DNA of 64,000 nucleotides from an uncultured virus (IMG/VR IMGVR_UViG_3300025530_000412) (IMGVR_UViG_3300025530_000412), one strand, 5' to 3'. Numbered from the stretch's first letter, positions 5,017-25,300 are shown. Notes: generated by a model from the letters alone, not told the origin. Program-made: numbers and translations.

Positions 5017-6018
5017 ATGAATAGAAAATCTTTATCTTGGAATGTGAAGCAAGTTTGTACTATGATTGATAAAGGTACTATTACCTTTGATAATCCAGTA
5101 CAAAGACCTTCTAGACAATGGAAAAAAGAAGATCAATCATTATTGATAGATTCTATTTTGCGAATGTTTGTGCCAGATATCTACGCTGTCCAAGTTACAA
5201 AAGAAATTGAAGGAAAAATGGTCAACACATATGATATTATTGACGGAAAGCAAAGATTGACTACTATTAACAGTTTCCGAAAAGATGAATGGGCATTAAC
5301 ACAACTTGATCCTGTTACACTTGAGTCAACAGGGGAAACGTATGATATTTCTGGTAAAAAGTTTTCGGAGTTACCGGAAGAAGTACAACAAGAAATTTTA
5401 GGTTATACATTAACGTTTAAAGTGATTGAAATCGAAGATGATGAAGATGAAGAAGCAATCGTAGATGCAATATTTTATAGGTTGAATAATGGCAAACCAA
5501 TGTCAAGGGGCCATCTCGCCTTTGTATCAGCGCATAAAGATGTGCAAAAATACGTTCATGATAAGATTAACAATCATTCTTTGTTCACTATAACCGCACA
5601 TTATCCTGCAAGTTCAATTAAAAATTCTGATCGGGAGTTGACCATTCTTCAATCAATCTTGTTAGCGGGAGGATACGAATATAAATCATTTGCTAACAAG
5701 GACATTGAAGAAGTCTTCAAGGATAAAGAAATTGAAACCGATGTATTCAACAAAGTAACAGCAGCATTTGATATGATCGTTAATGCTTTCCCTGATTATA
5801 ACAAGTTTGTAACCAAAACAAGTATTCCGCCTATGGTTGCGCTTTGTATTAATAATAATTTTGATGGAAAAGTGATCTCATTCCTTCAGAATTACGCTGA
5901 AACAACAGAAAAAGGCGATGCATATAGAAGGTATTGTGGAGCAAGCGGAACCAAGAAAAGTATGGTTGAGGGGCGCATAAAAGGGTTGCAAATTCTCTAT
6001 GAGCAATATCAGGATTAA
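5017..6018 (+). CDS. DUF262 (ParB/GmrS-like) domain protein
   Basis: QR..W....LIDSIL, IIDGKQRLTTI, IFYRLNNG motifs. Confidence 0.85.
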   Translation: MNRKSLSWNVKQVCTMIDKGTITFDNPVQRPSRQWKKEDQSLLIDSILRMFVPDIYAVQVTKEIEGKMVNTYDIIDGKQRLTTINSFRKDEWALTQLDPVTLESTGETYDISGKKFSELPEEVQQEILGYTLTFKVIEIEDDEDEEAIVDAIFYRLNNGKPMSRGHLAFVSAHKDVQKYVHDKINNHSLFTITAHYPASSIKNSDRELTILQSILLAGGYEYKSFANKDIEEVFKDKEIETDVFNKVTAAFDMIVNAFPDYNKFVTKTSIPPMVALCINNNFDGKVISFLQNYAETTEKGDAYRRYCGASGTKKSMVEGRIKGLQILYEQYQD

Positions 6019-8012: not shown

Positions 8013-8159
8013 ATGAAGTCACCGTAAAACCCATGCGTTTACGCATGGGGATATAAGGAAGCAAATAACCGTGGGACACACGGGGATAGCTTGGTCAATT
8101 TCACTTCAAAAGAAGTGATCACCCAAGAATCCCCTAGCTTTAACTATGGGGAGTGTCAA
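8013..8159 (+). mobile_element. Non-autonomous IS200/IS605 miniature element (left end + omegaRNA/right end, no ORF)
   Basis: Follows TTTAT; left hairpin and right end (ACCGTGGGACACACGGGGATAG...CCCAAGAATCCCCT..ATGGGGAGTGTCAA) match the ends of 18491-19782. Confidence 0.9.
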
Positions 8160-8532
8160 ATCACTTTAAAACCCGTAAATTCATTTGTTGCAGCAAATAG
8201 AATATAGAAAGGAGATTTTAAAAATGAGATATTACTATAAAATTGATGACAATAAATATTGTGTTAAGATTAAGGAATATGGTTACGAGATGTTTAAATG
8301 TTTAGTTTTTAAAAAGTTTTTATTTCGTTACAAAAAAGTATATGAGAAAATATATATGAGGCAGTTAACTGGAAATGATGCAAAACAAATGGCTATTAAT
8401 TCAATAATTGAGTATGAACATAGTAAATTAATTGTTTAAAGAGCGCATTGATAAAAACATTGAGTTTTATTATTAAGGAGAATAGAATAAAAAAGAAATG
8501 TTTTTTTGAAAAAGACAAAGGGGATGAAGACA

Positions 8533-8877
8533 ATGAAAATTGTATGGTTTAGTCGCCATGAACCAATCCCAAAACAGATTGATGAATTGAAACGAATTTT
8601 TGGTGATGATGTACAAGTAGAAATTGATCCGAATCCATTTTCAAGTGCAGATGATGTAATTGAGCGGTTCAATAAATCAGGAGCAAAAGAAATGGTTATT
8701 GTTGCACCGCTTAGTGTGATTGATGCAATTACAAAACGTGGAATTAGGCCATTATACGCTGAGATGCGTGTAGTACAATCAAAAGAATACGATGTTGAAT
8801 CAAATGGCAGAAAATTTGTTTTTGAGAAATTTGTAAGGATTAACAAGGTGACAATCGAAAAAGAGAACTTAAAGTAG
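8533..8877 (+). CDS. Small Rossmann-like protein resembling Csx15/Csx16/Csx20 families
   Basis: N-terminal WFSRHEP..Q..EL and VIVAPLSVI patterns; resemblance judged by eye. Confidence 0.4.
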   Translation: MKIVWFSRHEPIPKQIDELKRIFGDDVQVEIDPNPFSSADDVIERFNKSGAKEMVIVAPLSVIDAITKRGIRPLYAEMRVVQSKEYDVESNGRKFVFEKFVRINKVTIEKENLK

Positions 8878-9027
8878 AAAAACCGCCATGAATGGCGGCT
8901 TCCTACATCAAAATAACTGAGTGAGACAGTGAATAATAAAGTTTGCGTTAATTCCTTATAGGTACGCTAAAATAACTTCTTAAACAAATAATCACTCAGT
9001 TACAAGTCCTTAAAAGGTATCGAAACT
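8877..9027 (-). ncRNA. Candidate ~150-nt structured sRNA
   Basis: Minus-strand TTGACA(9062-9057)-17-TATACT(9039-9034); 11-bp inverted repeat TAACTGAGTGA/TCACTCAGTTA; terminator GCCGCCATTCATGGCGGTTTTT; no ORF found. Confidence 0.55.
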
Positions 9028-9108
9028 ATACTTAGTATATATTGGTATCAATTTTTTGTCAAGGGAGGGTACAAAAAAATGAAAAAGAAAGAAATACAAG
9101 CATGTTAC

Positions 9109-9155
9109 ACTGCAACCGTCAGAAAGCCTCTGCCTTTAGGCATGGGGAGTGTCAA
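9109..9155 (+). mobile_element. Single-hairpin IS605-type mini element / right-end remnant
   Basis: CTGCCTTTAGGCATGGGGAGTGTCAA identical to the right end of 18491-19782; left boundary approximate. Confidence 0.7.
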
Positions 9156-9523
9156 CGCGTGATTTAGTCGGAGAAAGTTTGGATTTCTATGTTAGAAAGA
9201 GAATAGAATTGATAAAAACTATAATAACAAAAATAGCATAAGGGGATAAGAATTATGTATATTTCAAAAGGAGTAACAGCTTGTCTTTATGGTGGAATAA
9301 CTGATAAAATCACATATGTTGAAAATCAGATTAAATATTATAAATTGCATAATAATGATGAATTCATAAAATCAATAATTAAAGAAAGTTATAATGATAT
9401 TAAAGAAGCAATTGAATTCTATACGGAATATTGTGTTTTGTCTGCAAAATTCCTTCAAGATGAATTTGAAAAATTGACAGCTAAATATAATGAGATCATG
9501 AATTTCGAGTGAGAGGTAATCAT

Positions 9524-9799
9524 ATGGAACAACATATAAAAAAATGTAAAGCCATTGATTGTGACAACTATTTCTATGTAGAGAAAAAACCGGGAAGAAC
9601 AAAAGAATATTGTAGTTCACGTTGCAAGGATCGAGAAAAAGCAAGATTGTATCGAAAACTACGGAAAAACAAAAATCTCTGCCCTCAATGTGGAGGACAG
9701 ATGGACAGTAATAAATCATATTGTTCAAAATGCAAAATGTATTTTGCCGAAAGATATAGAATGAGAAAAATGAAGAAAATGAACAGTTTGGTAAAATAA
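9524..9799 (+). CDS. Cys-rich zinc-finger protein
   Basis: CKAIDC, YCSSRC, CPQCG, YCSKC. Confidence 0.55.
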   Translation: MEQHIKKCKAIDCDNYFYVEKKPGRTKEYCSSRCKDREKARLYRKLRKNKNLCPQCGGQMDSNKSYCSKCKMYFAERYRMRKMKKMNSLVK

Positions 9800-9804
9800 A
9801 ATAA

Positions 9805-10377
9805 TTATTTTCGAAAAATATACTTATATTGACTTTTTTTGATGAAATCGGCTGTTGTGTTTTGAGATAACAGCCGATCTATTTCTTTTTCAACCTCAGT
9901 ATAATTGTTGTAATATTTGAGTTGATCTGCACATGCCTGTTTTATGGCATTCATTCCTTCATGGTACATACCTATTGTTCGTATGACATATAAGATATTG
10001 GTTTTGGCGTCAACTAAAAATAAATTAATAGCATTACCCTCTTGCAAAAATAACTCTCTTATATTTTCTGGTTCTTTTAAGAAATTAATATTTAAATCAA
10101 AAGACCAATTTGAAGAAGAGTAATAAATAGATATAATTGGTATGTTTAGTTCTATATAAATATTGAAATATAAGTCGTTAGAGCGAAAGGTTTTAATATC
10201 TTTTGGAGTAGGTGAATTAATAAAATAATGAACATCAAAACTTTTTCCAACTAATACTGGTCGTACATTTTCAGTATTTGGAGAAGGATTAGGAATAGGG
10301 AAAGGTTTGTTAACTTCAAGATGGTAAAGCATAATACCATCTCCCTTTTTTAATTTTTTAATAGCATTATAACACAA
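9805..10377 (-). CDS. Hypothetical protein on the minus strand
   Basis: 190-aa ORF; RBS AGGGAG before internal ATG (~10332). Confidence 0.6.
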   Translation of the reverse strand: MCYNAIKKLKKGDGIMLYHLEVNKPFPIPNPSPNTENVRPVLVGKSFDVHYFINSPTPKDIKTFRSNDLYFNIYIELNIPIISIYYSSSNWSFDLNINFLKEPENIRELFLQEGNAINLFLVDAKTNILYVIRTIGMYHEGMNAIKQACADQLKYYNNYTEVEKEIDRLLSQNTTADFIKKSQYKYIFRK

Positions 10378-10413
10378 AAAAATGACATAAAAAAACCCAA
10401 TCGTATGATTGGG

Positions 10414-10641
10414 TCATCCAGTCATTTCATCCAGTTTATCAAACGCGCCAAGTTCTCTTGCACGTTGTAGAATTTTGATTAGCTGTTGGAAATCGTGGTT
10501 GGTTAAGTCAGGTTTGTTGTTAAGATCGTATCGCAATTGATCGTTTTCGGCTTTTAAATTTTCAATTTCTTTTTCAAGTTTTTCTATGGTTTGTTTTAAT
10601 TCTACAATCAATGATTGAGATTTGTCTTCGTTATTACCCAT
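10414..10641 (-). CDS. Small coiled-coil protein divergent from mazF
   Basis: Strong RBS GGAGGGAG; heptad pattern; downstream terminator 10392-10414. Confidence 0.6.
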   Translation of the reverse strand: MGNNEDKSQSLIVELKQTIEKLEKEIENLKAENDQLRYDLNNKPDLTNHDFQQLIKILQRARELGAFDKLDEMTG

Positions 10642-10722
10642 TTTTCTCCCTCCAGTATCAATCAGTTGTTTTTATAAAGTATGTCCAAAAAAATAAGAAA
10701 AAATACATAAAAATTGTAATAT

Positions 10723-10736
10723 AGAACATTTGTTCG
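10723..10736. promoter_or_regulatory. LexA (Cheo) SOS box abutting the mazF promoter
   Basis: AGAACATTTGTTCG matches GAAC-N4-GTTC; TTGAAT-17-TAAAAT directly downstream. Confidence 0.75.
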
Positions 10737-10807
10737 CTTGAATTTTAAAACTAAAATATGTAAAATATAGACAATAGGGAGAGGATAGGAGTGGAGGGGC
10801 AAAAGAG

Positions 10808-11218
10808 ATGCTAGTAGTAGATAAGTCAATTAAAAGTAAAAAATATAGAGGAGCAAGGGGTAACGAAGTTAAAAAATATGATATTTGGATGGCAGAGATG
10901 CGTGAAGGCAAAGGTGTCGAACAAGTTGGTACTCGACCTGTTGTTATTATTCAAAATGATGTTGGAAATGCCTTTTCCCCGGCTGTCATTGTTGCGCCCC
11001 TTACTTCGTCTATGAGTAAAACAAAAATACCTACACATGTTGCCGTAAAAGCAGAATTAAATGGACTGTCGAAAGACAGTACTATTTTAACAGAACAAAT
11101 TGTAACGTTGGACAAGTCGAGATTAAAATATAAAATCTCCAGACTTGATCTAGCGACTAGGCGGAATTTGGATGTAGCTTTGATGGTTAGTCTAGGGTTA
11201 GCAGATACAATAGCTTAG
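10808..11218 (+). CDS. mazF: PemK/MazF-family endoribonuclease toxin
   Basis: G.EQ.G.RPVVIIQNDVGN.FSP..IVAPLT...K..IPTHV...DSTILTEQI.TLDK.RL, colinear with Bacillus EndoA. Confidence 0.92.
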   Translation: MLVVDKSIKSKKYRGARGNEVKKYDIWMAEMREGKGVEQVGTRPVVIIQNDVGNAFSPAVIVAPLTSSMSKTKIPTHVAVKAELNGLSKDSTILTEQIVTLDKSRLKYKISRLDLATRRNLDVALMVSLGLADTIA

Positions 11219-11251
11219 GATGTGCATTTTTATGAATAAACAAAAATAAAC

Positions 11252-11284
11252 AAATCCCGCATAAAAATTTATATGCGGGATTTA
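11252..11284. terminator. Bidirectional rho-independent terminator
   Basis: AAATCCCGCATA...TATGCGGGATTT between convergent genes. Confidence 0.75.
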
Positions 11285-11293
11285 TTAATTCAA

Positions 11294-11563
11294 TCAATCG
11301 ATAAATTCATATTCTTCTGTTTCATCTGACCATTTACAATGGCCTTCAAAAATTGTTATAATACCGTTGAAAACAATACCCGTTGCGGCTGCCCAATGAT
11401 ACAGATCATCAAGGGTAGCTAGTCCGTAACTTTGGCCGGTTCGACTAGCTTCCTGTTCATCTGAGGTGAGTAGCCAGTGACGGGTATTTGTTTTTGGATC
11501 GGTATATACGCAATAGTAAATATGCTGATAGCTATTCACTATGTATGTCACCTCCTTGTCCAA
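11294..11563 (-). CDS. Hypothetical protein
   Basis: ORF with RBS and own minus-strand promoter TTGACA(11609-11604)-17-TATTAT. Confidence 0.6.
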   Translation of the reverse strand: MDKEVTYIVNSYQHIYYCVYTDPKTNTRHWLLTSDEQEASRTGQSYGLATLDDLYHWAAATGIVFNGIITIFEGHCKWSDETEEYEFID

Positions 11564-11683
11564 GGGAATTTCTTACCAACATAATACTTTATGTGTGTCA
11601 TGGTGTCAATATGTTAATTAAAAATTTGATTGTGTTATGACACAAACTATATTATAATTGGTATAGAAAGGAGGACACAGGGA

Positions 11684-12469
11684 GTGGAAATTAATCAACA
11701 TACAAAACTTAAAGATATTTTTTATAATTTTCGCACTAAAAATGATTGGACTTTAAGAGAATTTGCGAATAAAGTTGGTTTTTTGACTTACTCTTATTTA
11801 GGTAAGATCGAAAGGGGAGAGGTTTTACCCTCTAGAGACACGTTAAAAAAAATTGCAGATCGGTTTGATCTATCTTACTATCGTTTATTATTATCCGCTG
11901 GATATAAAGTAGATTTGGAAAAAGATATAAAAACAGTAGATTTGGGAATTCGGGGTAAAGAATTGCAAAAATTTATATTAACGAACAGTCTTTCAATTTA
12001 TGCTTTGCCTGATTTGGGAAATTTAATAACAGAAAGTAAAATAAATCCATATACCTTTTGTGATATAATTGGCATACAATATTCGGAATTAAAAGATTTA
12101 GTGAATTTAGATAGATCTGTTTCTTTAGAGGAAGCATTAAGAATATGCAAATTTCTTGCGATTAAATTTTATGAAGGGTTTCAAATTGTAAGAAAAGGGG
12201 TTTATCATTCATTTGTAATAGACGATGAAGATGTTGCCATGACTATTCATAAATATATCGAAGAAGAATCAAATGTTTTTTATCGTATAAGAGATGATGA
12301 AATATTGTATGTGAAAGACAAACAATATAATTATATTGCTTCAAATAATAAACTTATATTTGATGATTGTTTTGAAGAAAAATTAACTCAAGATGAAATA
12401 GAATATTTGAAAGAATGTCTTATTGTTTATAGAAAATTAAATTTAAAGCCATTAAAACCAATTCCATAA
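11684..12469 (+). CDS. XRE-family HTH transcriptional regulator (possibly tandem HTH)
   Basis: R.KNDWTLREFANKVG..TYSYLGKIERGEVLPS..TLKKIA; RBS GGAGG + GTG. Confidence 0.8.
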   Translation: MEINQHTKLKDIFYNFRTKNDWTLREFANKVGFLTYSYLGKIERGEVLPSRDTLKKIADRFDLSYYRLLLSAGYKVDLEKDIKTVDLGIRGKELQKFILTNSLSIYALPDLGNLITESKINPYTFCDIIGIQYSELKDLVNLDRSVSLEEALRICKFLAIKFYEGFQIVRKGVYHSFVIDDEDVAMTIHKYIEEESNVFYRIRDDEILYVKDKQYNYIASNNKLIFDDCFEEKLTQDEIEYLKECLIVYRKLNLKPLKPIP

Positions 12470-15400
12470 TCAGGATTGGTTATATTTTATAAAATTAATA
12501 TTTAATTTTTTGTATTAAAACGTTGAAAAAGATGGTATAATAAAAATAAATAGTAATAGTGTTAAAGGGTGTATTTAATGAATATAATCAAAATTGCAGT
12601 TAAAATGTTGGAGAACCGCTTAAAATAGTAGAAGTAGAGGATTCAATTGAAGTGTTTGAGAGATATTTATATATTGATGGGAAATTACACGTTTTGAAAC
12701 ATTATATCAAGGAGATTGAAAAAGGAAGGTTTGATTAAAAATTTTAGTAAGTGTAAATTGAGGTGATAATTAATATGAGAAAATTTTACAGTATAAGCTC
12801 TACTCCATATTGTTCGTTTTTAGATCAATATGTCAAAGTTGTTTATGCAGAGAAATTAGAAGAAGCACATGTTTATTTGGTTAAATATGAAGATGAAGAA
12901 GATATATATCACGAAAAAATAGTCGAGCATCATAAATATGGAAAACCAGTATTATTTGATAGTAAAGAAGAATACGAACAATTTAAGGCCAAGATTATAG
13001 AAAATAGAAAAAATCATCTTCTGGTAGATGATAATTGGATTGAATTTTTGTATTCTGAATATTGTTCTAATTATTCTGAGCAAACATATGAAATCGACAG
13101 AGAAGCTATTAGACAAATAATTAAAGAAAAACTTGGGATTGATGTTTAAAAATTTGAGGTCCCACACTTATTCAAGATTTATAATAAAAGAATGATTTTA
13201 TCGCCCAATAAAAGGAGGAGATTTACATAAATGTCCGAAATTTTTGAAAGGAAAAGCGGAATGATTGAATTGGTATCTAAACATGATAACATGACTAGGA
13301 TTATATTTTATCCATCTGATTATGATTCGGAATCTGCTCATTCACTATCTGGAAAATTATATGAAGCCGTTTCGTGGGGAGTGTATGACGGTTCAGATGT
13401 CCATGAAATGAATTTTATTGCGGATGTTAGTATAAAATGGGATGGATGTTCTCACTATTGGTTTTATGGTGAAGATTATATTGATGAAGGTGAAAAAGAT
13501 AGTTATTACCACCTGTGCGGTGTTCATTCATATCTTACTTTTATGAGATCGTTAGTTTTTGCTTATGAGATTATGATTGATAAAGTTGGTGAGGATGCAA
13601 TTGGGGAAACAGAAGAAATCGCACAACTAAGAAAACTTGGTTTGTTAGATGGATATGAAATCAGAAAAATCCAATAAAAGAGTTGTTTTAAACAAAAATG
13701 TTAGAGGGTGAACATTAATGAAATATACTTGCAAAAAATGTGGTGAAAATAGATTTTTTTATATTGAAATATCGGTAAAAGCAAAACAAAGGATAGATTT
13801 GAAGCAAGGGTCACGACATAAAAAAGTGTATGATATTGATCCTAATATTATTGATGGGATTTATGAAGATATTATTTACTGTGGAAAGTGCAATGAACAA
13901 GTAGATACGAAACAATGGATCGAATATTTTGAAAAAGATTATTAATAATTGGTGATGACAATGAAATAAAAAAAAAGAAAATGGTATGTTCGGTTCGGTT
14001 TATAAAAGCAAGAAAAAAAGTGTTTAGCTATAGTGGTGTTTTTGTTGTAGAAAAACCTGATAAATCGCGCTATAGTTTCTTGGGCAATAAATTATTGTTA
14101 AACAAACTTTGGAAAGCACAAAGGGCCACTGAAAATTGGATTGATGAAATGATTTGATAGAATAAAACACTGATTTTAAGGGGTTAAATACAAATGCACA
14201 ACTTTGAAGAAATATTAAATATGACTGATGAAGAATTAATAAAATCTCACAACAAAATGTCAAATTACACTTATAGTGGAGATTTTTTTATTAAAGAATA
14301 TTACAGACGACAACATAGTAAATCAGCTGAAACAGTTGAAAAAATGACAAGGCAAATGTTGACTTTTACAGTTATAATGACTATCCTGACTTTTGTAAAT
14401 GTTGCAATGGTAGGAATATCTTTACTGAGATGATTAAGTATTTTATTCAGATAAGCGGATAAATGAAAAGAAGTGGAAAATAAAAAAACTGATTTCATCC
14501 AAAATTGAAGAGAGGAGGAAGTATGAAGGGGTACAAATATGTTGCATGGGATATTGATGAACATAATTCAAGTATTAACTTAAGCAAGGCAGCGAGGCAT
14601 GAAATAGTTCATTTTAGCGAACTAAAGACAGCAAAAGGGTATTATGACAAAGAATTTGTAAATGGTATCCATTTTTGTAGAACGCAACATGATTTAATAC
14701 AATGGGTCAAAGATTGTTTTGAGTGGGAAGATCCATCTTGTATAGAAATTCTAGAAGTAATTCCCGTTGCAAAAGTAAGGCAAAGGAAATATGGAGATGG
14801 ACGCACAGCATTTATTACAGAGTCTTGTTATGTGAGAGTCTTAGAAGACGATGAGATTGATTCAGAGCTTTTACAAATAATACATTCTCATTTTGGATAA
14901 AAAAATATTAATTTAGATCGGATAAAAAATACTGGAGGGCTGAGATGCAGAACAATACTACACATGAATATAAAGTTAAAGGTATTGTAGTAAGAGAAGG
15001 AGAAAATTGGTACATTAAAAATGAAGATAAATATTATTTGGCTTCTGACTTGCTTACAGGAATTGATTTAATTAGTATCGATTGCGATAATTATACAACT
15101 CGTGAAGGTGATGAAATTGAAATTTATATTGGCGTTAAAAGTAAATAAAAAGATATTAAAGTAAAGATTGAACAAACTTTTTATGAGATGTTCGACAGAA
15201 ATCATACTTTTTGTCTTGATGAAGTAATAAAAAATAAAAGAAAGGTTGGGTGAATAATGAATAAGCTTGTCATGTGTTTTCTCAACACAGGAGTAGGAAA
15301 TGAAGAATTTGAGTATGAAGAAACAGATACAATACCGAATTGTATGAATTGCCGATTTAGATATAATTTATCTGTAGTTGCACCTTGTTTTGATTGTAAT

Positions 15401-15545
15401 GGGTATTATGATACAGGAAGATCCTATTTTACGGAAAAGCAGAATATTTTTAATGAATGGACAAAGGATAAAGAAGGGGAAAATTGAACATATTAAATTG
15501 ATAATTTAATTAAAGGAGAGAAAAGAGTTATAAAGAAAGTATAGT

Positions 15546-15852
15546 GGCATACGATGTCAAGACAGTTTTTTAATGAATTAGCTGTGTTTTGGTTCATTGT
15601 TGAAAAATTGCATTATACGAACGAATGTTCTATACTGATAATAAGAACATTTATTCGTAGAGGTGTGCTATGGACTTCAGCGGATCACGGGTGACTCGCC
15701 AGCGATACCTGTGCAAGCATTGCGGGAAAACGTTCAACGACCTCACCGGCACGCCCAGCACGTTTGAGACCGAAACCAGTCTGCGACAAGCACGGTTTGC
15801 CTCCTAACACCAAGAAACAAGAAAAAAAACAACAGCAAACCTAAACACAGCT
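15546..15852 (+). mobile_element. Internally deleted IS1595-family remnant
   Basis: GC-rich ORF 15670-15807 encodes RQRYLCKHCGKTFNDLTGTP (IS1595 transposase Zn ribbon); GGCATACGATG-type end at 15546; ends approximate. Confidence 0.6.
15608..15657 (+). promoter_or_regulatory. SOS-regulated promoter with two LexA boxes
   Basis: TTGCAT-17-TATACT; CGAACGAATGTTC 15618-15630 in the spacer; GAACATTTATTC 15645-15656. Confidence 0.7.
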
Positions 15853-17093
15853 AAAAATTTATCAATGGATTAGATATGATTGCTTGAAATATATTCGAAA
15901 GAAAAAATCCAATAAAAACTGACTTTCATAAGGAAAAGGAGAATGAAGGAAATGAATTATAAGGCAGATATTCGTTACATGACAGTTGAAAACAATGAAT
16001 TCGTATTTAAGGACGGAATTGGATTTTTCAGTGAAGAAGCCGAACATCAGGCACGAAACAATTTTAACGTTATTAGGCAAGAATGCAAAGAAGTTAAACA
16101 CAGCGATCACTTGTTTGATTTATATATTGACGGGGATCTTATCGACACTTATGGTGTATCCAAAGAAGACGCTCAAAAAATTATTGATAAGTACTTTGTA
16201 AATACACTATGAAAGTTACACTTTTATAGAAAGGGGGATTAATAAAATTGCAGATCAAAGATGAGAAAAAATTAGCAGAATTTATTGCCGATCATTTACC
16301 TATTAGTTATGAATATGCATGGCACTTTGTAGATGGTGCATTAAAAGGCGGAATGTTTATTGAACAAATTAACTTCATAATAGCATTAAGTACCAGAGAT
16401 AAAATAATCGAAGATCTTCAACGGGAAAACTATGAATTGAAAAGAAAATTGTATGAAAATAAATAAGAGGTCAATTACATAAGAAAGGGAGAAGAGGAAA
16501 TGTCAAATAAAGTCTGTAAAAATTGTTGGCATTGGGAAGCCCCGGATTACTCTCAAATGTCCGGAGTATGTGCTTTAGATATATATGATAAACCATATGG
16601 CGAAACTGATGCTTGTGATAAGTTTGAAGACAGATATGAAGATGAAGAAGAGTAAACAAAACGTCAATTTTATAAGGAGTGGTATTTAGTGATTGATAAA
16701 AATTGCAAACATGAAGACAAAAGGGAAATCGGGATTAATAGAGGATTTGAATTTGCACTAATAACAGTTTGTAATTATTGTGGTTTAGTTTTAGATGAAA
16801 AAGTAATTGAAGATATCCAATAAATAAGTAAAATTTTATAAGAAAGGGTGTTTAGATGTATTTAAATAGAAATGATTGGGATATTATTTATGACATTGAG
16901 AATAGAGCAAACGAAGGAAAAGCAACAAACGATGATGCGATAGTATTATTAAAATTAATAAGAAAAATGAATGGTAATATTATTGAACCAAAAACACATG
17001 ATGCCATACAAAAATTAATTGACTCTCTTTATTGATCTGAATAAAAAATCCATTTTAATTGAAGAAGAAATTAACAGAATGGGTAGAGTAAAT

Positions 17094-17396
17094 ATGAAAA
17101 AATTTATTTGTTTTTCGTTAATATTTGTTTTCATCTTATTGTATGCAACAAATCCAAATAATAATGAATTCAAAAGTTTTTTTATGATGAATGAAATTAA
17201 GCCTGATACATGGAACAAAGATAGTGTTGATTATTTTAATAAAATAACAGATTTGTTTAGCAGAAGACAAAATTATATCATTTTTTCAATATATGATTTT
17301 AAACAGAATAGTAATTCTGGTTATGTGCATAAAAAGTATGTTGCAGTATTTAATCAATTTATTCGGTTTAAAAGTGAAGTTTCAAGTAAGGATTGA
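17094..17396 (+). CDS. DUF4359-like membrane-anchored protein
   Basis: TM/signal followed by ATNP; RQNYIIFSIY motif. Confidence 0.55.
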   Translation: MKKFICFSLIFVFILLYATNPNNNEFKSFFMMNEIKPDTWNKDSVDYFNKITDLFSRRQNYIIFSIYDFKQNSNSGYVHKKYVAVFNQFIRFKSEVSSKD

Positions 17397-18490
17397 ATGA
17401 AAAGACTATTTTATTGGGAATGGGGTAAATTGAACATTGGAATGTAAATTTTTTAAAGATGTGCCCGTTTATGAATGGGATGATTTAGATGGGAAAAGTC
17501 TAATAATTCGAGTTTCGGAAGATAAAGGGAACAAAATTTTATATGGTTATGATCCAATTGATAATGTTTTATATGTTCTCGCTGAACAAATCAGTGAATA
17601 AAATAACGGTTTTACAGGAATTGAAAAGGGGAGGTTCGAATTATTTGTTAAAAGAAAATGATAAAGTATATTTTGTTGATTTGGATAGTGGCGAAATGAT
17701 TGAAGGTTTTTTGATTCATAATGACAATGGGCATTTCAAAAAATTGTTAATTAAATTTAATGATAATAACATGTTTAAATTATTTGTCAAAAGATGAGAA
17801 ACGGGAATGGAGAAAGAAGAAAAGTTAAAGGGAGAATGTGCGATGAATAAAGAAAAATATTTGAAGCTAGAAATTTTAATTGCAAATAAACTATACAAAA
17901 GTGAGACAGATCAGATAAAGAAATTAATGTATAAGGGTTGGTTAGAAAAATTAGTGGCTGATTATCAGTCAAAGTTATGACATGCGAGTGAGATGTATGT
18001 CTTTTGATCACGAAATGGCTAAACTTATACAACGTTATCTAAAGGATAATGGACAGGATTATACAATTAATGAAATATTGCTTAGACCAAGATGGAAAAG
18101 AGTTTGGTACTGGTGGCTTGCTCTTGAAAAATATGAAGGCAAACCAATGCCAAAGGATATATCGATTGATGAGTGCAGAAAAATTTATGGAGATGATTAA
18201 GTAAGGTGCTTGAGTACATTGAAAAATTAGAAGGAGTTATTGGTGCTTTATTGGGTGTAATTGCAACATTGGTTACAACAAAATTGTTGAAATATATTGG
18301 AGGTATAAGGTTTTATTTAGTTGGTGATGATTTTAAATTTAATAAGTTTGAAGAAACTGACTATGGAGAAACAGTATTAGTTCCTTCCAATAAATTAGAG
18401 TCTGATCATTGCAATGTTGATTTCGTTGTTGAAATATATAATAATTCTGAAATGATGATGGCATTAAGGGATTTAAAGATATGCTTTTAT

Positions 18491-19782
18491 ATGTAATCGC
18501 CGTAAAACCCCTAGCTTTAGCTATGGGGATATAAGGCGACAAAACAACTTCATTAATTAAAAATATTTTGCTATAATAGAAACAAGGAGGTGTAATAAAA
18601 TGGCAACATTTCATAAAGCCTATAAATTCCGCATCTACCCTAACAAACAACAACAAGAGTTAATCCATAAAACTTTCGGATGTTGCCGTTTTATTTATAA
18701 TCACTTCCTTACTAGACGAAAAGAAGTATTTGAAAAAGAAAATAAAACATTAAACTATAATGTGTGTTCTTCTGAATTAACCAAACTCAAAAAAGAATTG
18801 GTTTGGCTTAAAGAAGTAGATTCAACAGCATTGCAAACATCGTTAAAAGATTTGGATAGTGCGTTTCAAAAGTTTTTTAAGGAGAAATTGGGATATCCAA
18901 AATACAAATCAAAAAAGAATCCAGTTCAATCATATACATCCAAGATGAATATAAAAGTTTTTGACAAACATATTCAGCTTCCTAAACTTGGACTTGTAAA
19001 ATACGCTAAATCAAGAGAAGTTGAAGGAAAGATTATTAAAGCAACAATAAGAAAAAATCTATCAGACAAATACTTTGTATCTATTGTATGTGAAGTTGAT
19101 GTTCAACAATTGCCACAAGTCGAAAATAGAATTGGTATTGATCTTGGTATTAGCCATTTTGCTACATTGTCTAATGGAGAAAAGATTGATAATCCAAAGT
19201 TTTTGGTAAAATATCAAAAACAATTAGTATATTGGCAACGCAAATTGTCTCGTAGAACGAAAGGCGGCAAAAATCGGGAAAAAGCTAAACTAAAAGTAGC
19301 TAAAATCCATGAAAAAATAGTCAATTGTCGTAAAGACTTTTTGCATAAGTTATCTTCAAAGCTGATTAACGAAAATCAAGTGATCGCTATTGAAGATTTA
19401 AATGTAAAAGGTATGATGCAAAATCATAAGTTAGCAAGACATATTGGTGATGTTTCATGGAGTGAGTTTAGACGGCAATTGGAATATAAAGCACAATGGT
19501 ATGGACGTGAGATTAAAGTTATTGGAAGATTTGAAGCAAGTAGTCAGATTTGTTCTGAATGTGGATATAAAAATGAACAAGTTAAAGATTTAAGTATTAG
19601 AAATTGGATATGTTCTGAATGTGGAGTGGAGCATGATAGAGATGTAAATGCAGCGAAAAATATATTGAAAATGGCTGTTTAATAAATTGAACTGTGGGAC
19701 ACACAGGGATAGCTTGGTCAATATCCTGTCGATGGACGGGAATTCCCAAGAATCCCCTGCCTTTAGGCATGGGGAGTGTCAA
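18491..19782 (+). mobile_element. IS200/IS605 family, IS1341-type (tnpB only)
   Basis: TAM TTTAT 18486-18490; subterminal hairpins at both ends; ends in TCAA; no tnpA in window. Confidence 0.92.
18600..19682 (+). CDS. tnpB: RNA-guided endonuclease TnpB
   Basis: [13 protein letters not shown] (RuvC-I D), IAIEDL (E), CSECG..CSECG Zn finger, DRDVNAA (D); triad intact. Confidence 0.96.
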
Positions 19783-19798
19783 TGAATTTCATTAAGTA
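19690..19798 (+). ncRNA. TnpB omegaRNA scaffold (3' part) plus flanking guide
   Basis: Conserved right-end scaffold ending TCAA at 19782; predicted guide TGAATTTCATTAAGTA; 5' end unknown. Confidence 0.7.
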
Positions 19799-19969
19799 AA
19801 TAGGTGTAATCGGAAGTATGAAATTTTTGTAGTGAAAAGTATAAATAAAAAATAAAATCAAGACAGTTGACAAAAAGAATAAAATATCTTATTATTAACT
19901 CAAATCAATGATTGTAATTTTTTACAATATTCGCCCCATTCTATACATATACATGCAAAAATAAATTTT

Positions 19970-21364
19970 TTGTGTGTATATCTTTCGTATTTTTATGATA
20001 TAATGCTAACGAGTAAATTATATGGGATGGGGATGATGAGAATTATGACAGTCATGCAAGCTAATGAAGAACTGTTGCATGGATTGAATGTGTTGTTTCA
20101 GGAGATTCGTGAAGATAAAAAATTGCAAATTGAAATCGACAATCAACTTGTCGAACACAATTTTAGACGTGGAACTTTAAACGAAGTCATGCTTAATCCT
20201 GAACGTATCTTTAGTTTTGAAACCGTTGAGGCTGCGGCGTTTATAAATTCGATTTATAAAGTAACAAAAAGACATGAAATTAATCCGCAAAAATATTTTT
20301 CGGCTAAGGATATCAAAAAAGCCGAAAAATATACAAGAAATAAAGTGGAATTTGAATATCCGTATACCCTTCATCGTGTAATTAAAGCATCCGACACTGA
20401 GTATGCTACCGTTATGTCTGCTAAAGAAATTGCTGCTTGGTGGAATAACGAAGCATTGACATATAACTTTCAAACTCAAAGATTGTCAAAAAAGAAAATC
20501 AATAAAGAGGGTAAAGTAATTGAAAAGCCTGATGTAAGGATAAAAAGTGTCAAAAGAATAACTGAATTGATGCTTAGTGGTCGTTATAAATCCAATGCGC
20601 TTTTGTTTAACATTTTAGTGGATGGAAATGACAACATCGAATATGATGATGGCGAGTTAACCATTTATGAAGGTACAACAGTTAATCTCATTGATGGTAT
20701 GCATCGTGTACAAGCTATGTTAAATGCCTTGGAAGAAAATCCTGATTTTGATCGAAACTTTATTGTGGCAATCACTCATTTACCGATTTCAGAAGCACAA
20801 GATTTGTTGAGCCAAGTTAATACCACAAACCGTTTCGATGCAACACTGGCAAAATATTATGGTGCCAATAAATTAGGCGAACAAATTGCTAAAGATTTGA
20901 TGAATATTCCTGAGTTGATTGGACGTGTATCGATTAAGACAACATTAGATAAAAAATTGAGTTATTTAACTAACTTTGCTGTATTATCTGAGGCGATTGA
21001 AGATGTATTTAAACCTCAAACGACCAAAGATCGGTATGACATTTTGGAAGTATTGAAAAAGTTTTTTGGATATTTAATCAACGCTTATGAATTTGAATTT
21101 GTAAAAAATGTAGATGAGGTCAGAAAGATTTCTTGGATCAATCATCATAATACTTTTGTTGGCTATGTTGCTTTGGCAAAAAAATTGTATGAAAAGTATG
21201 GATTTGATTTTCCTGTAAATAAAATTACTGATGCTGTTAACAGCATTGATTTTAGAAAGCAAGAAGGTTTGCCGTTTAACAATATTATGGCTCCACAAGG
21301 AAAAGTTAATTCCAATGTTATTAAGCGCAACATCAAAGAGTTTTTTGAGAAAATTGACGTTTAA
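19970..21364 (+). CDS. DndB/DGQHR-like ParB-superfamily protein, SPbeta YopQ (SroE)-like
   Basis: YNFQTQR and LIDGMHR motifs; directly upstream of YopR-like gene; likely start ~20045; promoter TTGACA 19867-17-TATTAT. Confidence 0.7.
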   Translation: MCVYLSYFYDIMLTSKLYGMGMMRIMTVMQANEELLHGLNVLFQEIREDKKLQIEIDNQLVEHNFRRGTLNEVMLNPERIFSFETVEAAAFINSIYKVTKRHEINPQKYFSAKDIKKAEKYTRNKVEFEYPYTLHRVIKASDTEYATVMSAKEIAAWWNNEALTYNFQTQRLSKKKINKEGKVIEKPDVRIKSVKRITELMLSGRYKSNALLFNILVDGNDNIEYDDGELTIYEGTTVNLIDGMHRVQAMLNALEENPDFDRNFIVAITHLPISEAQDLLSQVNTTNRFDATLAKYYGANKLGEQIAKDLMNIPELIGRVSIKTTLDKKLSYLTNFAVLSEAIEDVFKPQTTKDRYDILEVLKKFFGYLINAYEFEFVKNVDEVRKISWINHHNTFVGYVALAKKLYEKYGFDFPVNKITDAVNSIDFRKQEGLPFNNIMAPQGKVNSNVIKRNIKEFFEKIDV

Positions 21365-21380
21365 GGAGTTGTGATCATCA

Positions 21381-22367
21381 ATGAAAAACACAATATACAG
21401 TGGTGAATTATACAATCCAGAAATAAAAGAACGATTCTTAAGTAAGTATAAAGAAAACACACAAAAAACCCTTAAACGTATATTTAAAGCATCGTATTAT
21501 TCAGAGAAGGATTTAGATAAAGATTTGTACGCTTTTTCGCGTGATGAATTAAGAAGTTTCTTTTACTTTTTGAAACCTTTAAAATTCAATTCCAGTAAAC
21601 AAAATGGACATTTAGTAAAACATTATATTGATTGGGCAATTGAGCAAGGGATCAAAAAGGGCGTAAATCCTTTAGATGGACTTTCCCCAGAATGGTATAA
21701 GCAATTTGTAGATGCCGAATCCAAGCAATACTTTACGGAAGATGAATTGAATTACGTTGTAGATCATTGTCACAACGCTCAAGATGCGGTCATTGTCCAA
21801 TTAATTATGGAAGGCGTCTTGGGAGAATCATGTGAAGAGCTTTTGAATTTGCGAAAAGATGATATTGATTTTCAAAATAATGTACTTTCGCTTACCGATG
21901 ATATTAATAAGAAGTCGAGAAAAATAAAAGTAAGCGATAAATGTATTAGGCTGTGTAAACAAGCATTGAATGAAACCGAGTACGAAAAACTTAATGGAGA
22001 AGCAAGTCCGGATGTGCGAAGTCCAGTGGTCAAATTAGTGGATAATGATTATGTTATAAAGTCAGCACTGACCAATACTAAGAGTTTTGGAAAGGCCACA
22101 AAAAATATTATTCATCGCAGACTGGATGTTCTTTCAAACTATTTTAAATTGCCCAATTTTACACCCAAAAACATTCATTATTCGGGTATGTTGATAATGG
22201 CTAAAAATCTTTATCTACAGAGAGGAAATTTAGACAAAAATGAATATGACATGATCTTGGATACGTTTGGAATTAAAAATCTGGTTACAAACGAATCACA
22301 AGTATTTAATGCAATGAGACAGGAGTTTTTGAATATAGAGAAGATAAAAGAACTGTACAAAATTTAA
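21381..22367 (+). CDS. Tyrosine-recombinase-fold repressor, SPbeta YopR/MrpR (SroF)-like; catalytic residues degenerate
   Basis: YNPEIKERFL, NAQDAVIVQL.MEG, EELLNLRKDDI, TPKNIHYSG; lacks catalytic R and HxxR. Confidence 0.75.
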   Translation: MKNTIYSGELYNPEIKERFLSKYKENTQKTLKRIFKASYYSEKDLDKDLYAFSRDELRSFFYFLKPLKFNSSKQNGHLVKHYIDWAIEQGIKKGVNPLDGLSPEWYKQFVDAESKQYFTEDELNYVVDHCHNAQDAVIVQLIMEGVLGESCEELLNLRKDDIDFQNNVLSLTDDINKKSRKIKVSDKCIRLCKQALNETEYEKLNGEASPDVRSPVVKLVDNDYVIKSALTNTKSFGKATKNIIHRRLDVLSNYFKLPNFTPKNIHYSGMLIMAKNLYLQRGNLDKNEYDMILDTFGIKNLVTNESQVFNAMRQEFLNIEKIKELYKI

Positions 22368-22421
22368 TTTGAATATTAATGTGTCGTGCAAAAATACATG
22401 GCACATTAATATTCAAATTAA
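22364..22421. terminator. Long inverted repeat (20-bp perfect arms) after the repressor gene
   Basis: TTAATTTGAATATTAATGTG 22364-22383 / CACATTAATATTCAAATTAA 22402-22421. Confidence 0.6.
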
Positions 22422-22536
22422 CAAATTAAAATATAAAATTAATAATAAATCATTGTAATTGGAACTTACTTCCTTTGTAATGCTTATTTTAAAGTATTAA
22501 TATTGATGTTGACATCTTCAAATAGGTGACAACATC

Positions 22537-22893
22537 ATGAGTGGCTTTATTGTTCAAAATTTAAATAACAATAAAGAATATAGATTTGTTTCAATGAAAG
22601 ATGTTTTAATGATAACAATGACCAATGGGAGGATTCCAACATTTTATTGCAATGAAGGACAATTTCTTTTGATAAACAAATTTGAACAATACAAAGATAT
22701 GGTCAAGATATTGGGGTATAATTTTAAAGAGAGTGACCGGGGGATATTAATAAATTGTGATCATGCAAAAGAATTTAATGAAAAAAGACGGATAATAATT
22801 TTAAACAAAGAGAAGAACATATTTGCAACTGTATCAGAAAGTCGTAAACCTGAATTTGTTTCAATAAATCCACGGAAAAATGCGCTTGATTAA
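22537..22893 (+). CDS. LytTR-like DNA-binding domain protein
   Basis: F..SDRGILIN and ATVSE..K patterns; 118 aa. Confidence 0.55.
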   Translation: MSGFIVQNLNNNKEYRFVSMKDVLMITMTNGRIPTFYCNEGQFLLINKFEQYKDMVKILGYNFKESDRGILINCDHAKEFNEKRRIIILNKEKNIFATVSESRKPEFVSINPRKNALD

Positions 22894-22931
22894 TCATAAA
22901 ACTGGTTATATAATACTTATACATCAAAATG

Positions 22932-22945
22932 CGAACATATGTTCT
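22932..22945. promoter_or_regulatory. LexA SOS box
   Basis: CGAACATATGTTCT just downstream of TATAAT. Confidence 0.7.
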
Positions 22946-23529
22946 GTCAACAAAAATTCATGTGCATCAGTTGGTGTTGAAATAGGTAAAATGTCCCATT
23001 ACTATAGACATAAAAATGAATATAATTGTTATAAGAAAGGAGTGGTTCTTATGAATAAAACAAAAACCATCAGACAGTGTTGATTCCCAACATATCTGAT
23101 GGCAAATAAAATACCCCACAATAGATTTTATTATGAGTATTGTTAGTTGTCTTGTGTAGATTTTGTGAACGAAAGAGGTGCAGATTTAATGCCTTATGCT
23201 TCATTGCTTGTATACTCCTACGGTAGTTTGACTTATTGTTACGGTGATGCTTTTTTGGTAAATAAAAAATATGAACAAATCAGTAAAAATATTAAGGATG
23301 ATTTGAACGAACGCGCAAACATTTGGTTGTTTGCAAATAAAGAAGATATGCTTTTATACATAAAAGAGAAAAGAGCATATCATCAAAATGATCAATCCGT
23401 GGAATTCATTCCAATGGTGATTTCCCAAGTTGTATAAATTTCGAGAGGGTGATTCACACCCTCTTTTTAAAATAAAATATTAATATTGACATTAGTAAAT
23501 TTTAACGTTAAACTAATTACAAAAGATAA

Positions 23530-24252
23530 ATGGAGGCAAACATGAAGCAGCAACAAGAAATTAAATTATTAATTGTAATTTGGATAGTAGTGGCTCTTAT
23601 ATTGCTGTCATTTTTATTTTTGGTGCCGAGAGAAAAGAAACAAACGGAAAAAATGGATTTTGAAACATTAAAACAAAAATATAATTTATTACAAAATGCA
23701 TATGTTATCCGAAATTTAGAACAAAGAAATAGTTTAGTTGATATTGTTGTTGAAAGTAGTCAAGAACACAGTCAGGAAGAAGTTGAATATAAACGTCCTT
23801 ATATAAAGGATGTGCCATTATCAGATGAACTTTTAGATTATACATATCAATTATCTATAGATTATGATATTCCTTATACATTAATTTTGGCAATTATTAA
23901 TGTTGAAAGTAATTTTGACAAGGATGTAGTGTCTAAAACAAATGACTATGGATTGGCGCAAATAAATCAAAGGTACATAAGCTGGATGGCTAATGAAGCT
24001 GGCATTGAAAATGTAGATCCACTTAATCCAGAACACAATGTATTGATGGCAGTTTGGTATTTGGATTATTTAAGAAATTATTGGAGTACATATAATGTAT
24101 CTGAAGAAGATAAGTTTTATTTGGTTGTATTAAGCTATAATAAAGGAATTGAGGGAGCAAAAGATTGGATTAAATCAAAAGGTTGGAGTAACAATTACGT
24201 TGCTAAGGTTTTAGAAACTAAAATATATTATGAAGAAAATATGGAGGTTTGA
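23530..24252 (+). CDS. Membrane-anchored SLT lytic transglycosylase
   Basis: N-terminal TM; AIINVESNF, YGLAQIN, SYNKG motifs. Confidence 0.88.
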   Translation: MEANMKQQQEIKLLIVIWIVVALILLSFLFLVPREKKQTEKMDFETLKQKYNLLQNAYVIRNLEQRNSLVDIVVESSQEHSQEEVEYKRPYIKDVPLSDELLDYTYQLSIDYDIPYTLILAIINVESNFDKDVVSKTNDYGLAQINQRYISWMANEAGIENVDPLNPEHNVLMAVWYLDYLRNYWSTYNVSEEDKFYLVVLSYNKGIEGAKDWIKSKGWSNNYVAKVLETKIYYEENMEV

Positions 24253-24256
24253 AATA

Positions 24257-24808
24257 ATGCTTATCGCATTTACTGGATGGGCAGGTAGCGGAAAAACTGA
24301 AGCGGCAAAATATTTAAAGAGTAAGTATGGTGGAGAAATTTTTTCATTTGCTTCAGAGATTAAAATTATTGGTAGACGATTGTTTGGTCTTAAAACGAAA
24401 GACAGAAAAATTTATCAGTTAATTGGAGAAAAGATGAGGGAGATTGATCCAAATGTATGGGTCAATGTTGTAAAAAACGATATTGAACTTGAATTGGAAT
24501 ATGGAGATGTTGATCATTTTTATATTGACGATCTAAGACGAATGAACGAGTATGAAATGTTAAAAGAAAAAGGATTTACTTTTGTACGTATTGTTGCTGA
24601 CGAGGATCTTAGAATTAAAAGACTGATTGAACGAGATGGACATTGTGATATTTCATTGTTATATAATGAAAGTGAAAGTGGATGTGCCCATTTGAAGATG
24701 TTGGAAATTGAGAATAATGGGACGTGGGACGATTTTTATAAGAAGTTAGATGAACTTGTTAGTACATATTCTGAAAATAAAAAAATAAAAATTGACAACA
24801 AGAAATAA
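24257..24808 (+). CDS. Deoxynucleoside monophosphate kinase
   Basis: P-loop GWAGSGKT, SFASEIK, IDDLRRMNE, ESE. Confidence 0.8.
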   Translation: MLIAFTGWAGSGKTEAAKYLKSKYGGEIFSFASEIKIIGRRLFGLKTKDRKIYQLIGEKMREIDPNVWVNVVKNDIELELEYGDVDHFYIDDLRRMNEYEMLKEKGFTFVRIVADEDLRIKRLIERDGHCDISLLYNESESGCAHLKMLEIENNGTWDDFYKKLDELVSTYSENKKIKIDNKK

Positions 24809-25084
24809 TGCTGTTAATCTAAATATTGTATACGAAATAATTTATGTTTAACGGGAAAGGTGCTAATGGCAATTTTGGGGGCACCAGAGCAAGGGATATG
24901 TGGTGAAGACCTTGTAATAGTAATTGAAAGGGGTGAAGATATCTGATTGATGATAAATTAGAAATATGAAAAGATGTAGCTGGATTAGAAAGGTTTGTTG
25001 AAGTTTCTAACTATTGACGTATTCGTATAAAGCCTAGATATGTAAATGACAATGGTACGCTTGTATTTATGCGTGAAAGATTAT

Positions 25085-25229
25085 ATCCTGTCACCGTAAA
25101 ACACCAAGCTTTAACTATGGGGATATAAGCCAACTTAACCGTGGGACACACGGGGATAGATCGGTTAATAAGTGGCCGTTAGACCACTGTTCCCAAGAAT
25201 CCCCTGCCTTTAGGCATGGGGAGTGTCAA
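25085..25229 (+). mobile_element. Non-autonomous IS200/IS605 miniature element (left end + omegaRNA/right end)
   Basis: Follows ATTAT; same ends as 8013-8159 and 18491-19782. Confidence 0.9.
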
Positions 25230-25300
25230 AAAAGAAGTGAACTAAAAGCTGTAAGAAAAAATAAAAGTTAAATATTAAATACAATTTTTTTCAAAAACTT

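Follow-up and report, generated by a model that had tools for sequence, protein, structure and literature searches.

Published work on TnpB nucleases, their guide RNAs, and the small elements that carry them provides the background here. In ISDra2, the core of the omegaRNA consists of a stem 1 whose loop pairs with positions −5 to −3, followed by stems 2, 3a/3b, and 4, the last with a UUUA loop; according to the same source, 116 nt beside the guide suffice, stem 3b and the C-terminal tail of the protein are dispensable, and that tail overlaps the RNA gene (PMC10097598). For IS608, guide AAAG is reported to pair with target TTAC, the right end is cut after TCAA, and the transposase TnpA is said to need only the guide tetranucleotide, the hairpin, and the right-end cleavage site (PMC3201880). 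Palindrome-associated transposable elements (PATEs), as described for ISGst of Geobacillus stearothermophilus, often encode an omegaRNA that depends on a TnpB supplied from elsewhere (Meers et al. preprint, PMC10055086). For standalone omegaRNAs, activity in trans has been demonstrated, with additional target sites as a reported consequence (Altae-Tran et al. 2021, summarized in PMC10691335), and that summary calls their biological role still unknown. Here, we analyzed a 64,000-nucleotide stretch of an uncultured virus genome (IMG/VR IMGVR_UViG_3300025530_000412), referred to below as the window, which carries one complete tnpB element and two short protein-less elements of the same family, mini 1 and mini 2. 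A second virus record (G001; 77,676 nt, labeled as a provirus) matches window positions 1-15676 at 100% identity in reverse orientation and adds 62 kb of phage upstream; statements on the whole phage cover the ~126 kb of the window plus G001.

By their anatomy, the minis are bona fide omegaRNA-bearing PATEs of the resident TnpB's family. The single complete tnpB-only IS200/IS605 (IS1341-type) element in the window lies at 18491-19782, and a repeat search recovered both of its ends at each mini. The 98-nt right-end family comprises 19685-19782 as the reference, 8062-8159 at 77%, and 25132-25229 at 81%; the 59-nt left-end family comprises 8009-8067, 18487-18545, and 25081-25139. At the first hairpin, a 20-mer occurred three times within 3 mismatches, compared to no occurrence in 100 shuffles. 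A covariance model of the scaffold aligned over positions 1-100 of 100 in each copy, with 119.2 bits for the full copy, 109.4 for mini 1, and 105.9 for mini 2, compared to 42.1 bits for the right end of a second family (lineage 2) and 31.2 bits for a stub of that family. The coordinates and sequences that a first-pass annotation had assigned to three copies were correct, as was its view of the minis as a left end fused to a right-end guide-RNA scaffold, and the covariance alignment it had proposed as a check agrees with that view. In both minis (147 and 145 nt), the left end is joined a few bases upstream of the 91-nt scaffold, and both junctions fall at an AAC that is common to the left-end interior and the sequence before stem 1. 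Each mini has both cognate ends and stands 3' of TTAT, and no open reading frame (ORF) of ≥80 aa starts inside either. Subterminal imperfect-palindrome hairpins, a fixed target tetranucleotide, and TnpB domains were all found, as in IS200/IS605 elements. Table 1 lists the features.

Table 1. Coordinates of the elements and their parts, in the window unless another record is named
Feature	Coordinates	Strand	Remarks
TTAT target/transposon-adjacent motif (TAM) of mini 1	8009-8012	+	TTTAT with the preceding base; TTAT at 11/11 insertions
Mini 1, 147-nt protein-less PATE-type element	8013-8159	+	Left end ~8013-8066; scaffold 8069-8159
Mini 1, stems 1 and 2	8069-8073/8079-8083; 8090-8094/8123-8127
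Mini 1, stems 3 and 4	8101-8107/8112-8118; 8130-8138/8143-8152
Mini 1, pseudoknot	8075-8077 with 8155-8157
Predicted 16-nt guide of mini 1	8160-8175	+	Right flank
TTAC and second-family (lineage-2) stub	9105-9108; 9109-9155	+	47-nt single-hairpin stub
TTAT target/TAM of full element	18487-18490	+	TTTAT with the preceding base
Left end of full element	18491-18545	+	Imperfect-palindrome hairpin 18508-18532; AAAA 5' of its foot
tnpB gene, 360 aa	18600-19682	+	Pfam OrfB_IS605, Cas12f1-like_TNB, HTH_OrfB_IS605
omegaRNA scaffold of full element, 91 nt	19692-19782	+	Ends in TCAA; covariance model 119.2 bits
Full copy, stems 1 and 2	19692-19696/19702-19706; 19713-19717/19746-19750
Full copy, stems 3 and 4	19724-19730/19735-19741; 19753-19761/19766-19775
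Full copy, pseudoknot	19698-19700 with 19778-19780
Predicted 16-nt guide of full element	19783-19798	+
TTAT 5' of mini 2	25081-25084	+	ATTAT with the preceding base
Mini 2, 145-nt protein-less PATE-type element	25085-25229	+	Scaffold 25139-25229
Predicted 16-nt guide of mini 2	25230-25245	+	Right flank
Second tnpB-only IS200/IS605 element	L006:14688-15990 = G001:34688-35990	-	Target TTAC; left guide AAAG

To define the target motif, we compared 11 independent insertions of the family of the full element and the minis (lineage 1), 3 in the window and 8 from other viral contigs. TTAT stands directly 5' of the left end in all 11. Since two loci (L047 and L053) carry one element between different flanks, the boundary is fixed right after TTAT, and the minis do begin at 8013 and 25085. 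The fifth base, before TTAT, is T at four sites, A at six, and C at one. The TTTAT motif of the first-pass annotation therefore stands for the full copy and mini 1; mini 2 has ATTAT, and the shared core is TTAT. The foot of the left hairpin is preceded on its 5' side by AAAA in lineage 1; in lineage 2, whose target is TTAC at two left ends and the stub, these four bases are AAAG. The substitutions in target and guide are matched: where lineage 2 has C in the target and G in the guide, lineage 1 has T and A. Lineage 2 thus uses TTAC with AAAG exactly as reported for IS608, and, as described there, the elements lie just 3' of a tetranucleotide whose pairing partner is the four-base stretch before the left hairpin. 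Differences from that account are the lack of tnpA in the 126 kb and the distances from cleavage site to hairpin foot, 17 and 7 nt here compared to 19 and 10 nt. Every right end here terminates in TCAA. The left and right hairpins are nearly identical, with a bulged T in each; there are no terminal inverted repeats, and the flanks of the three copies show no direct repeat indicative of a target duplication.

The right-end scaffold is, as read from its sequence, a complete ISDra2-type omegaRNA, with stems 1 to 4 and the pseudoknot in the published order. The GAC loop of stem 1 faces GUC at −5 to −3, stem 2 is CUUGG/CCAAG, stem 3 has 7 bp and a tetraloop without a stem 3b, and stem 4, with its UUUA loop, doubles as the TnpA hairpin. 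Stem 1 begins 9 nt past the tnpB stop, so that the scaffold lies wholly downstream of the gene. The loss of an essential 5' scaffold portion inside tnpB, which had been raised as a possibility for the minis, consequently does not apply, and the scaffold is complete in both. ISDra2 (PDB 8h1j, 8exa, 8bf8) has the same RNA plan; unlike in ISDra2, the scaffold here has 91 nt, no stem 3b, and no gene overlap, TTAT replaces TTGAT as the TAM, and the last bases of the right end are TCAA. A search of Rfam gave no family at threshold on any copy, the best being RAGATH-32 at 17.4 bits, compared to a cutoff of 41.8. Other contigs provided 19 distinct right ends accompanied by a lineage-1 tnpB hit; 13 of these have 97-158 nt from stop to element end with a stem-1-type hairpin soon after the stop. 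In two others (L056 and L065) the gene extends over the stem-1-type hairpin and ends 71 nt before the element does; three (L048, L067, and L068) have only 38-39 nt past the stop, and the model still finds stems 1 and 2 in L067 and L068; the last (L082) is a composite locus.

We evaluated the conservation of the pairing in a MAFFT alignment of 10 family members, related to one another and including the 3 from the window. Paired bases were found in 97.5% of cells, compared to 32-46% in slid-partner controls, and none of 500 shuffles scored as high. Pairs changed on both sides numbered 12 of 29 (stem 1, 3/5; stem 3, 7/7; stem 4, 2/9), and stem 4 was paired in 98.9% of cells. Covariation thus backs stems 1, 3, and 4; stem 2 is invariant. 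The pseudoknot was compatible in 10/10 sequences, its 3' strand being preset by the search. The hairpin that had been noted as variable in sequence and yet always paired is stem 3a, and it is indeed paired in every copy: TCCTGTC/GACGGGA in the full copy (7 pairs, one U-G), TCACTTC/GAAGTGA in mini 1 (7 pairs), and AGTGGCC/GACCACT in mini 2 (6/7 pairs, one C-A mismatch). Elsewhere, the linker, the tail, and loop 1 with its pseudoknot are the same in the minis as in the full copy, and stem 1 differs by one compensated pair (two positions); the differences cluster in stem 3, where they are compensated, the tip of stem 4, and the junctions.

The minimum-energy fold of the full copy is the four stems (z = −3.12), and that of mini 1 also gives all four (z = −3.27). 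In mini 1, the sole nonstandard scaffold pair is at the stem 4 tip, and the left-end hairpin has 1 mismatch. On these sequence features, mini 1 looks competent and is a plausible guide in trans. The right flank of mini 1 slightly resembles the beginning of a left end, but a decayed left end there was rejected, since the local alignment score of 21 does not exceed that of shuffles (mean, 17.7; maximum, 31). Mini 2 has a whole-element fold with z = −0.92 and a left-end hairpin that, read by eye, has decayed with 3 mismatches; it is probably a decaying copy and doubtful as a guide. The first 11 nt of its predicted guide (25230-25240) equal the stem 3 loop and 3' arm of mini 1 (8108-8118), a site that has no adjoining TTAT and matches 11 of the 16 guide bases; in our informal judgment, this likeness is probably due to chance. 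A tRNA-Met starts 71 nt downstream of the mini 2 right end.

The TnpB of the full element aligns with ISDra2 TnpB (8h1j) at E = 2.4e-95. Its D181, E265, and D348 correspond to the catalytic D191, E278, and D361 of ISDra2, and the CCCC zinc finger is present. Unlike ISDra2 TnpB, the 360-aa protein has no disordered C-terminal tail and ends where the ordered part ends. With its catalytic residues intact, the resident TnpB is apparently active; it had been called intact beforehand, and the conserved triad, together with a family and target motif shared with the minis, agrees with that call. That it is the only TnpB is true within the window; the phage as a whole has another, in the second tnpB element on G001. 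Upstream of the gene are an extended −10-like TGCTATAAT (18569-18577) and a ribosome-binding site, neither of which is present in the minis. About 40 nt of the left end of the full element has 93-98% identity to four GenBank phage records, and an identical TnpB protein is on record in a 174-kb contig. Upstream of the element, a 96-aa ORF (18206-18496) reads through TTAT, and its last sense codon and stop (ATG TAA) are the first six bases of the left end.

The second tnpB-only element, oriented like the others, is ~19 kb upstream of the point where the window begins. Its 352-aa TnpB has the TnpB Pfam domains, keeps the RuvC acidic residues, and is 28% identical to the window TnpB; its right end has the same stem plan with a longer stem 3. 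Window positions 9105-9148 equal the left end of this element at 100% identity. They take in TTAC and the stub up to 9148; in the stub, the 5' segment and hairpin of a second-family left end are joined straight to the right-end tail GTGTCAA; the stub has no omegaRNA stems 1 to 3, and the model matches stem 4 and the tail alone. The list of right-end copies in the first-pass annotation was accordingly one short, the fourth match (9124-9155) being that of the stub and hence of the second family, not lineage 1. Similar single-hairpin stubs occur at L034:824-893 and L106:1504-1574, so that three related phage records and both families have them; they look as if both end hairpins had recombined.

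No transposase that could move these elements was detected in the phage. The Y1 transposase family PF01797 had no match in G001 or in two related phage records (G002 and G003) and one match in a third (G004); Y1_Tnp was absent from the scanned window ORFs (61 of the 74 ORFs of ≥100 aa), and a tblastn search of the window and G001 with the G004 TnpA gave a best E of 1.8. With no TnpA in 126 kb, the elements are nonautonomous here. In G004, tnpA lies beside a tnpB whose product is 79-80% identical to the window TnpB; therefore, an autonomous lineage-1 relative exists in sibling phages.

Compared to the ISGst PATEs, as that preprint presents them, the minis are alike in being protein-less, with TnpA-type hairpins at both ends, a right-end omegaRNA, and TnpA and TnpB supplied from elsewhere. 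The TAM of ISGst2 TnpB2, TTTAT, is the one at the full copy and mini 1, by comparison of the motifs. The minis differ in lying in a phage genome without TnpA in 126 kb and in having only 145-147 nt, an extreme shortness due to the scaffold lying wholly outside tnpB. With standalone omegaRNAs, in the summary cited, they share the condition of mobilized guide loci without effector or transposase and with a putatively compatible effector in the same genome; that report concerns cellular genomes and experiment, whereas the present evidence is from sequence, in a phage. Elements of this kind are thus already in print, as omegaRNA-bearing PATEs and trans-acting standalone omegaRNAs, and are common in phage contigs. 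Phage-specific experimental work on such minis was not found in the limited literature searched.

To determine how common they are, we scanned IMG/VR for the right-end motif and obtained 81 loci. A tnpB match was found upstream in 38 and not in 43, 10 of which are too near a contig end to judge. Of the 33 judgeable tnpB-less right ends (≥1 kb upstream), 23 keep stems 1 and 2, in 16 distinct scaffolds; some of these 23 are internal deletions that retain part of tnpB. A 24th, the G001 copy of mini 1, was left out of the model input. Several tnpB-less loci have a clear left end, a short interior, and a right end, and some minis, e.g., the L037 family, occur at several sites with different flanks. 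Shorter, hairpin-only PATEs also exist (L028 and the L029 group). Given these and the reported needs of TnpA, transposition does not explain the retention of stems 1 to 3. A mini in G002 has a right end 100% identical to that of the resident element, and no matching tnpB was found in the 148.6 kb of that record (83% estimated completeness). This mini, also held by two other contigs (loci L030, L064, and L079), is made from the window's element and sits at a different site; between its left end and the 100% identical right end it retains the last 21 nt of tnpB. In a 118.8-kb IMG/VR contig (L070), a tnpB-less scaffold has a perfect TTGACA-17-TATAAT promoter-like site in the 60 nt upstream and no left end in the 420 nt upstream of the scaffold; judging by sequence, it may be a fixed, self-expressed guide-RNA gene. 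At another locus (L041), the left end is truncated and a second copy of ~28 nt of the left flank immediately follows the right end, an arrangement that recombination may have produced.

The three 16-nt right flanks, i.e., the predicted guides, are all different, as had been claimed. Within the 126 kb, each matches its own flank alone. No TTAT-flanked match with ≤3 mismatches was found in the 126 kb or in any of the other loci examined, so that the guide search proposed beforehand returned nothing in this phage beyond the elements' own flanks. Each of these flanks is preceded by the element end rather than TTAT; therefore, the only predicted target is the element-free allele, in line with the published homing model. 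Such alleles had been proposed to occur in competing sibling phages. Related records G002 to G006 have no syntenic site, with or without minis; exact scans of viral contigs with the three right flanks returned G001 itself only, two such scans of metagenome contigs returned nothing, and the contigs of four runs contained no excision joints or element-skipping joints.

We propose that the minis, as omegaRNA-bearing PATEs, supply guides in trans to the resident TnpB, and we put the probability of this reading as a whole at roughly 0.6. The anatomy, family, target motif, structural conservation, and intact nuclease are established here; transcription, processing, loading, and cutting are steps that we infer. 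All five elements are co-oriented with the surrounding genes, which makes read-through the likely source of RNA. The minis, having no promoter of their own, would be transcribed by read-through from these phage genes. TnpB, for which 5' processing of its own transcript has been reported (PMC10278001), could then trim that RNA on its 5' side into a mature mini omegaRNA carrying ~16 nt of the right flank as its guide. Loaded onto the phage's own catalytically intact TnpB, this guide would direct cutting only of a TTAT-flanked copy of the site that lacks the mini; the mini would then be restored or spread through recombination with a genome that carries it. A putatively compatible effector is at hand, since the TnpB is of the minis' family and the mini scaffolds reach 106-109 bits, compared to 42 for the right end of the other family. 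Trans-loading is mechanistically credible for mini 1 on the basis of its sequence. A role in homing or competition would follow by analogy with published systems; homing of transposons against co-infecting phages is tabulated, as "transposon non-restorative homing," in a 2026 review (PMC13565253).

Several points weigh against this proposal. The minis have only 79% (mini 1) and 81% (mini 2) scaffold identity to the resident copy, so that cross-compatibility is an assumption, and mini 1 is closer (87%) to an element of another phage (the G004/G005 subfamily, where stem 3 is nearly equal) whose TnpB is 79% identical. The search pattern fixed the 3' strands of stem 2 and the pseudoknot, which therefore carry no covariation evidence. 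In mini 2, two of the five stem 2 pairs are broken (stems 1 and 4 and the pseudoknot are intact), the minimum-energy fold lacks stems 1 to 3 (the whole-mini fold loses stem 2), and the motif is ATTAT, not TTTAT. No sigma-70-like promoter was found directly upstream of either mini, scans giving no more hits than shuffles. One metatranscriptome run yielded RNA-library contigs over tnpB (18597-19678) and one 355-nt contig (24996-25350), free of differences, that bridges mini 2 into tRNA-Met; in such Logan contigs, RNA ends, strand, and level are not readable and DNA carry-over is possible. The RNA contigs leave the region of mini 1 (7600-8200) uncovered and break at the repeated right-end hairpin, which makes them uninformative there. 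Discrete mini RNAs and their binding by TnpB are predictions, and no element-free allele or empty-site sibling phage was seen in the relatives or runs examined.

The minis might instead have no function. It is possible, though the odds appear to be against it, that they are inert relics, i.e., neutral, non-autonomous deletion derivatives moved in by a TnpA of the host or another phage and making no use of a guide; their scaffold would survive because the copies are young or because micro-homology set the deletion point. The lack of TnpA in 126 kb, which leaves the elements frozen here, fits this explanation, as do the missing promoters beside the minis, the decay of mini 2 in the left-end hairpin and stem 2, and the fact that no polymorphic empty site was seen; the AAC shared by both junctions is compatible with a mechanistic hot spot. 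Against this explanation, differences are concentrated in the compensated stem 3, the stem 4 tip, and the junctions, and no change is seen in the linker, the tail, or loop 1 with its pseudoknot. Moreover, stems 1 and 2 are kept in 23/33 tnpB-less right ends (16 distinct scaffolds), and some minis, such as the L037 family, have spread to several sites.

If the scaffolds do function, the partner could still be a different protein. We consider it unlikely that the minis are functional guides for another TnpB (G004-type, 79-80% identical, or a host copy) while the resident TnpB serves its cis guide only. In support of this possibility, the ends of mini 1 are nearest to the G004/G005 subfamily (87%, and 79% to the resident copy; stem 3 is almost identical), G004 has a Y1 transposase beside its tnpB, and the mini of G002, without a matching tnpB, indicates that minis and nucleases are distributed across co-occurring phages. 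On the other hand, the scaffold parts contacted in ISDra2 (the pseudoknot, stem 2 of mini 1, and the proximal part of stem 4) are unchanged relative to the resident copy, stem 1, which is also contacted, differs by one compensated pair only, and the TAM is identical; furthermore, 79% protein identity would usually keep RNA partners interchangeable. Regulatory use, in which the scaffolds would either titrate TnpB as decoys or guide a nuclease-dead, TldR-like repressor, seems very improbable. Phage-encoded TnpB-derived repressors (TldR) are known from published accounts, but the RuvC acidic residues are retained in the two TnpBs of this phage, which sets them apart from TldR; in addition, the guides match their own flanks alone in the 126 kb, with no promoter-proximal TTAT-flanked target there.

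Supply of guides in trans to the resident TnpB, the reading that we favor, could be extended to the phage community. In a speculative version, to which we give little credence, this phage and its co-occurring siblings would hold one or two TnpBs together with dispersed, exchangeable omegaRNA-only cassettes as a multisite RNA-guided marker-exclusion system. If so, each cassette would force the inheritance of its own and neighboring genes in mixed infections, and cassettes and nucleases would be shared in trans across phage genomes, the G002 cassette being an example. The likeness is to the free-standing homing endonucleases of T-even phages as described for marker exclusion, in which a co-infecting relative has its element-free allele cut and converted, the outcome proposed here; the difference is that recognition would be by RNA guides from dispersed cassettes. 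A catalytically intact TnpB and cognate guide-only cassettes in one phage provide a compact natural test case for trans-loading and phage-to-phage homing. With a TnpB of 360 aa and a 91-nt scaffold that lies outside the gene and naturally lacks stem 3b, it is unusually small as a system and may interest tool builders.

The window belongs to a large phage or prophage, of which at least 126 kb is seen, colonized by two IS200/IS605-family lineages. Its gene content is phage type, with a DnaB-like helicase, Pol III alpha, a RecJ-like protein, class I ribonucleotide reductase and NrdI, thymidylate synthase, thymidine kinase, dUTPase, YopX, Gp157, and two tRNAs. A genome-collection scan gave relatives of ≤57% identity. 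In a protein search, the named neighbors had 56-66% identity and were mostly Bacillales, many of them thermophiles, which is a hint of the host only; they included Caldalkalibacillus, Brevibacillus, Paenibacillus, Parageobacillus, and Alicyclobacillus and also Clostridioides difficile and Pectinatus frisingensis.

Other observations concern the neighborhood of the elements. Defense- or addiction-type genes lie near them, encoding a protein with a GmrSD N-terminal domain (5017-6018), a MazF/PemK-like toxin (10808-11218), and, directly 3' of the full element, a DndB-like protein (19970-21364) and then a tyrosine recombinase of the MrpR type (21381-22367). A G+C-rich island at 15578-15860 has ~10 times the phage depth in the two DNA runs and is also deeply covered in the two RNA runs; G001 terminates within it, at window position 15676, and a 45-aa ORF without a significant family occupies 15670-15807. 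The island is probably a repeat common to more abundant organisms. The Pol III alpha-like polymerase is encoded in two overlapping ORFs, 42388-44871 (PHP, NTPase, and finger domains) and 44861-46297 (HHH_6). Finally, a diverged direct duplication of ~520 nt (30359-30880 and 32562-33084; 70-73% identity) spans the small ORFs 30350-30622 and 30619-30870 and the Gp157-like gene at 32532-33074.

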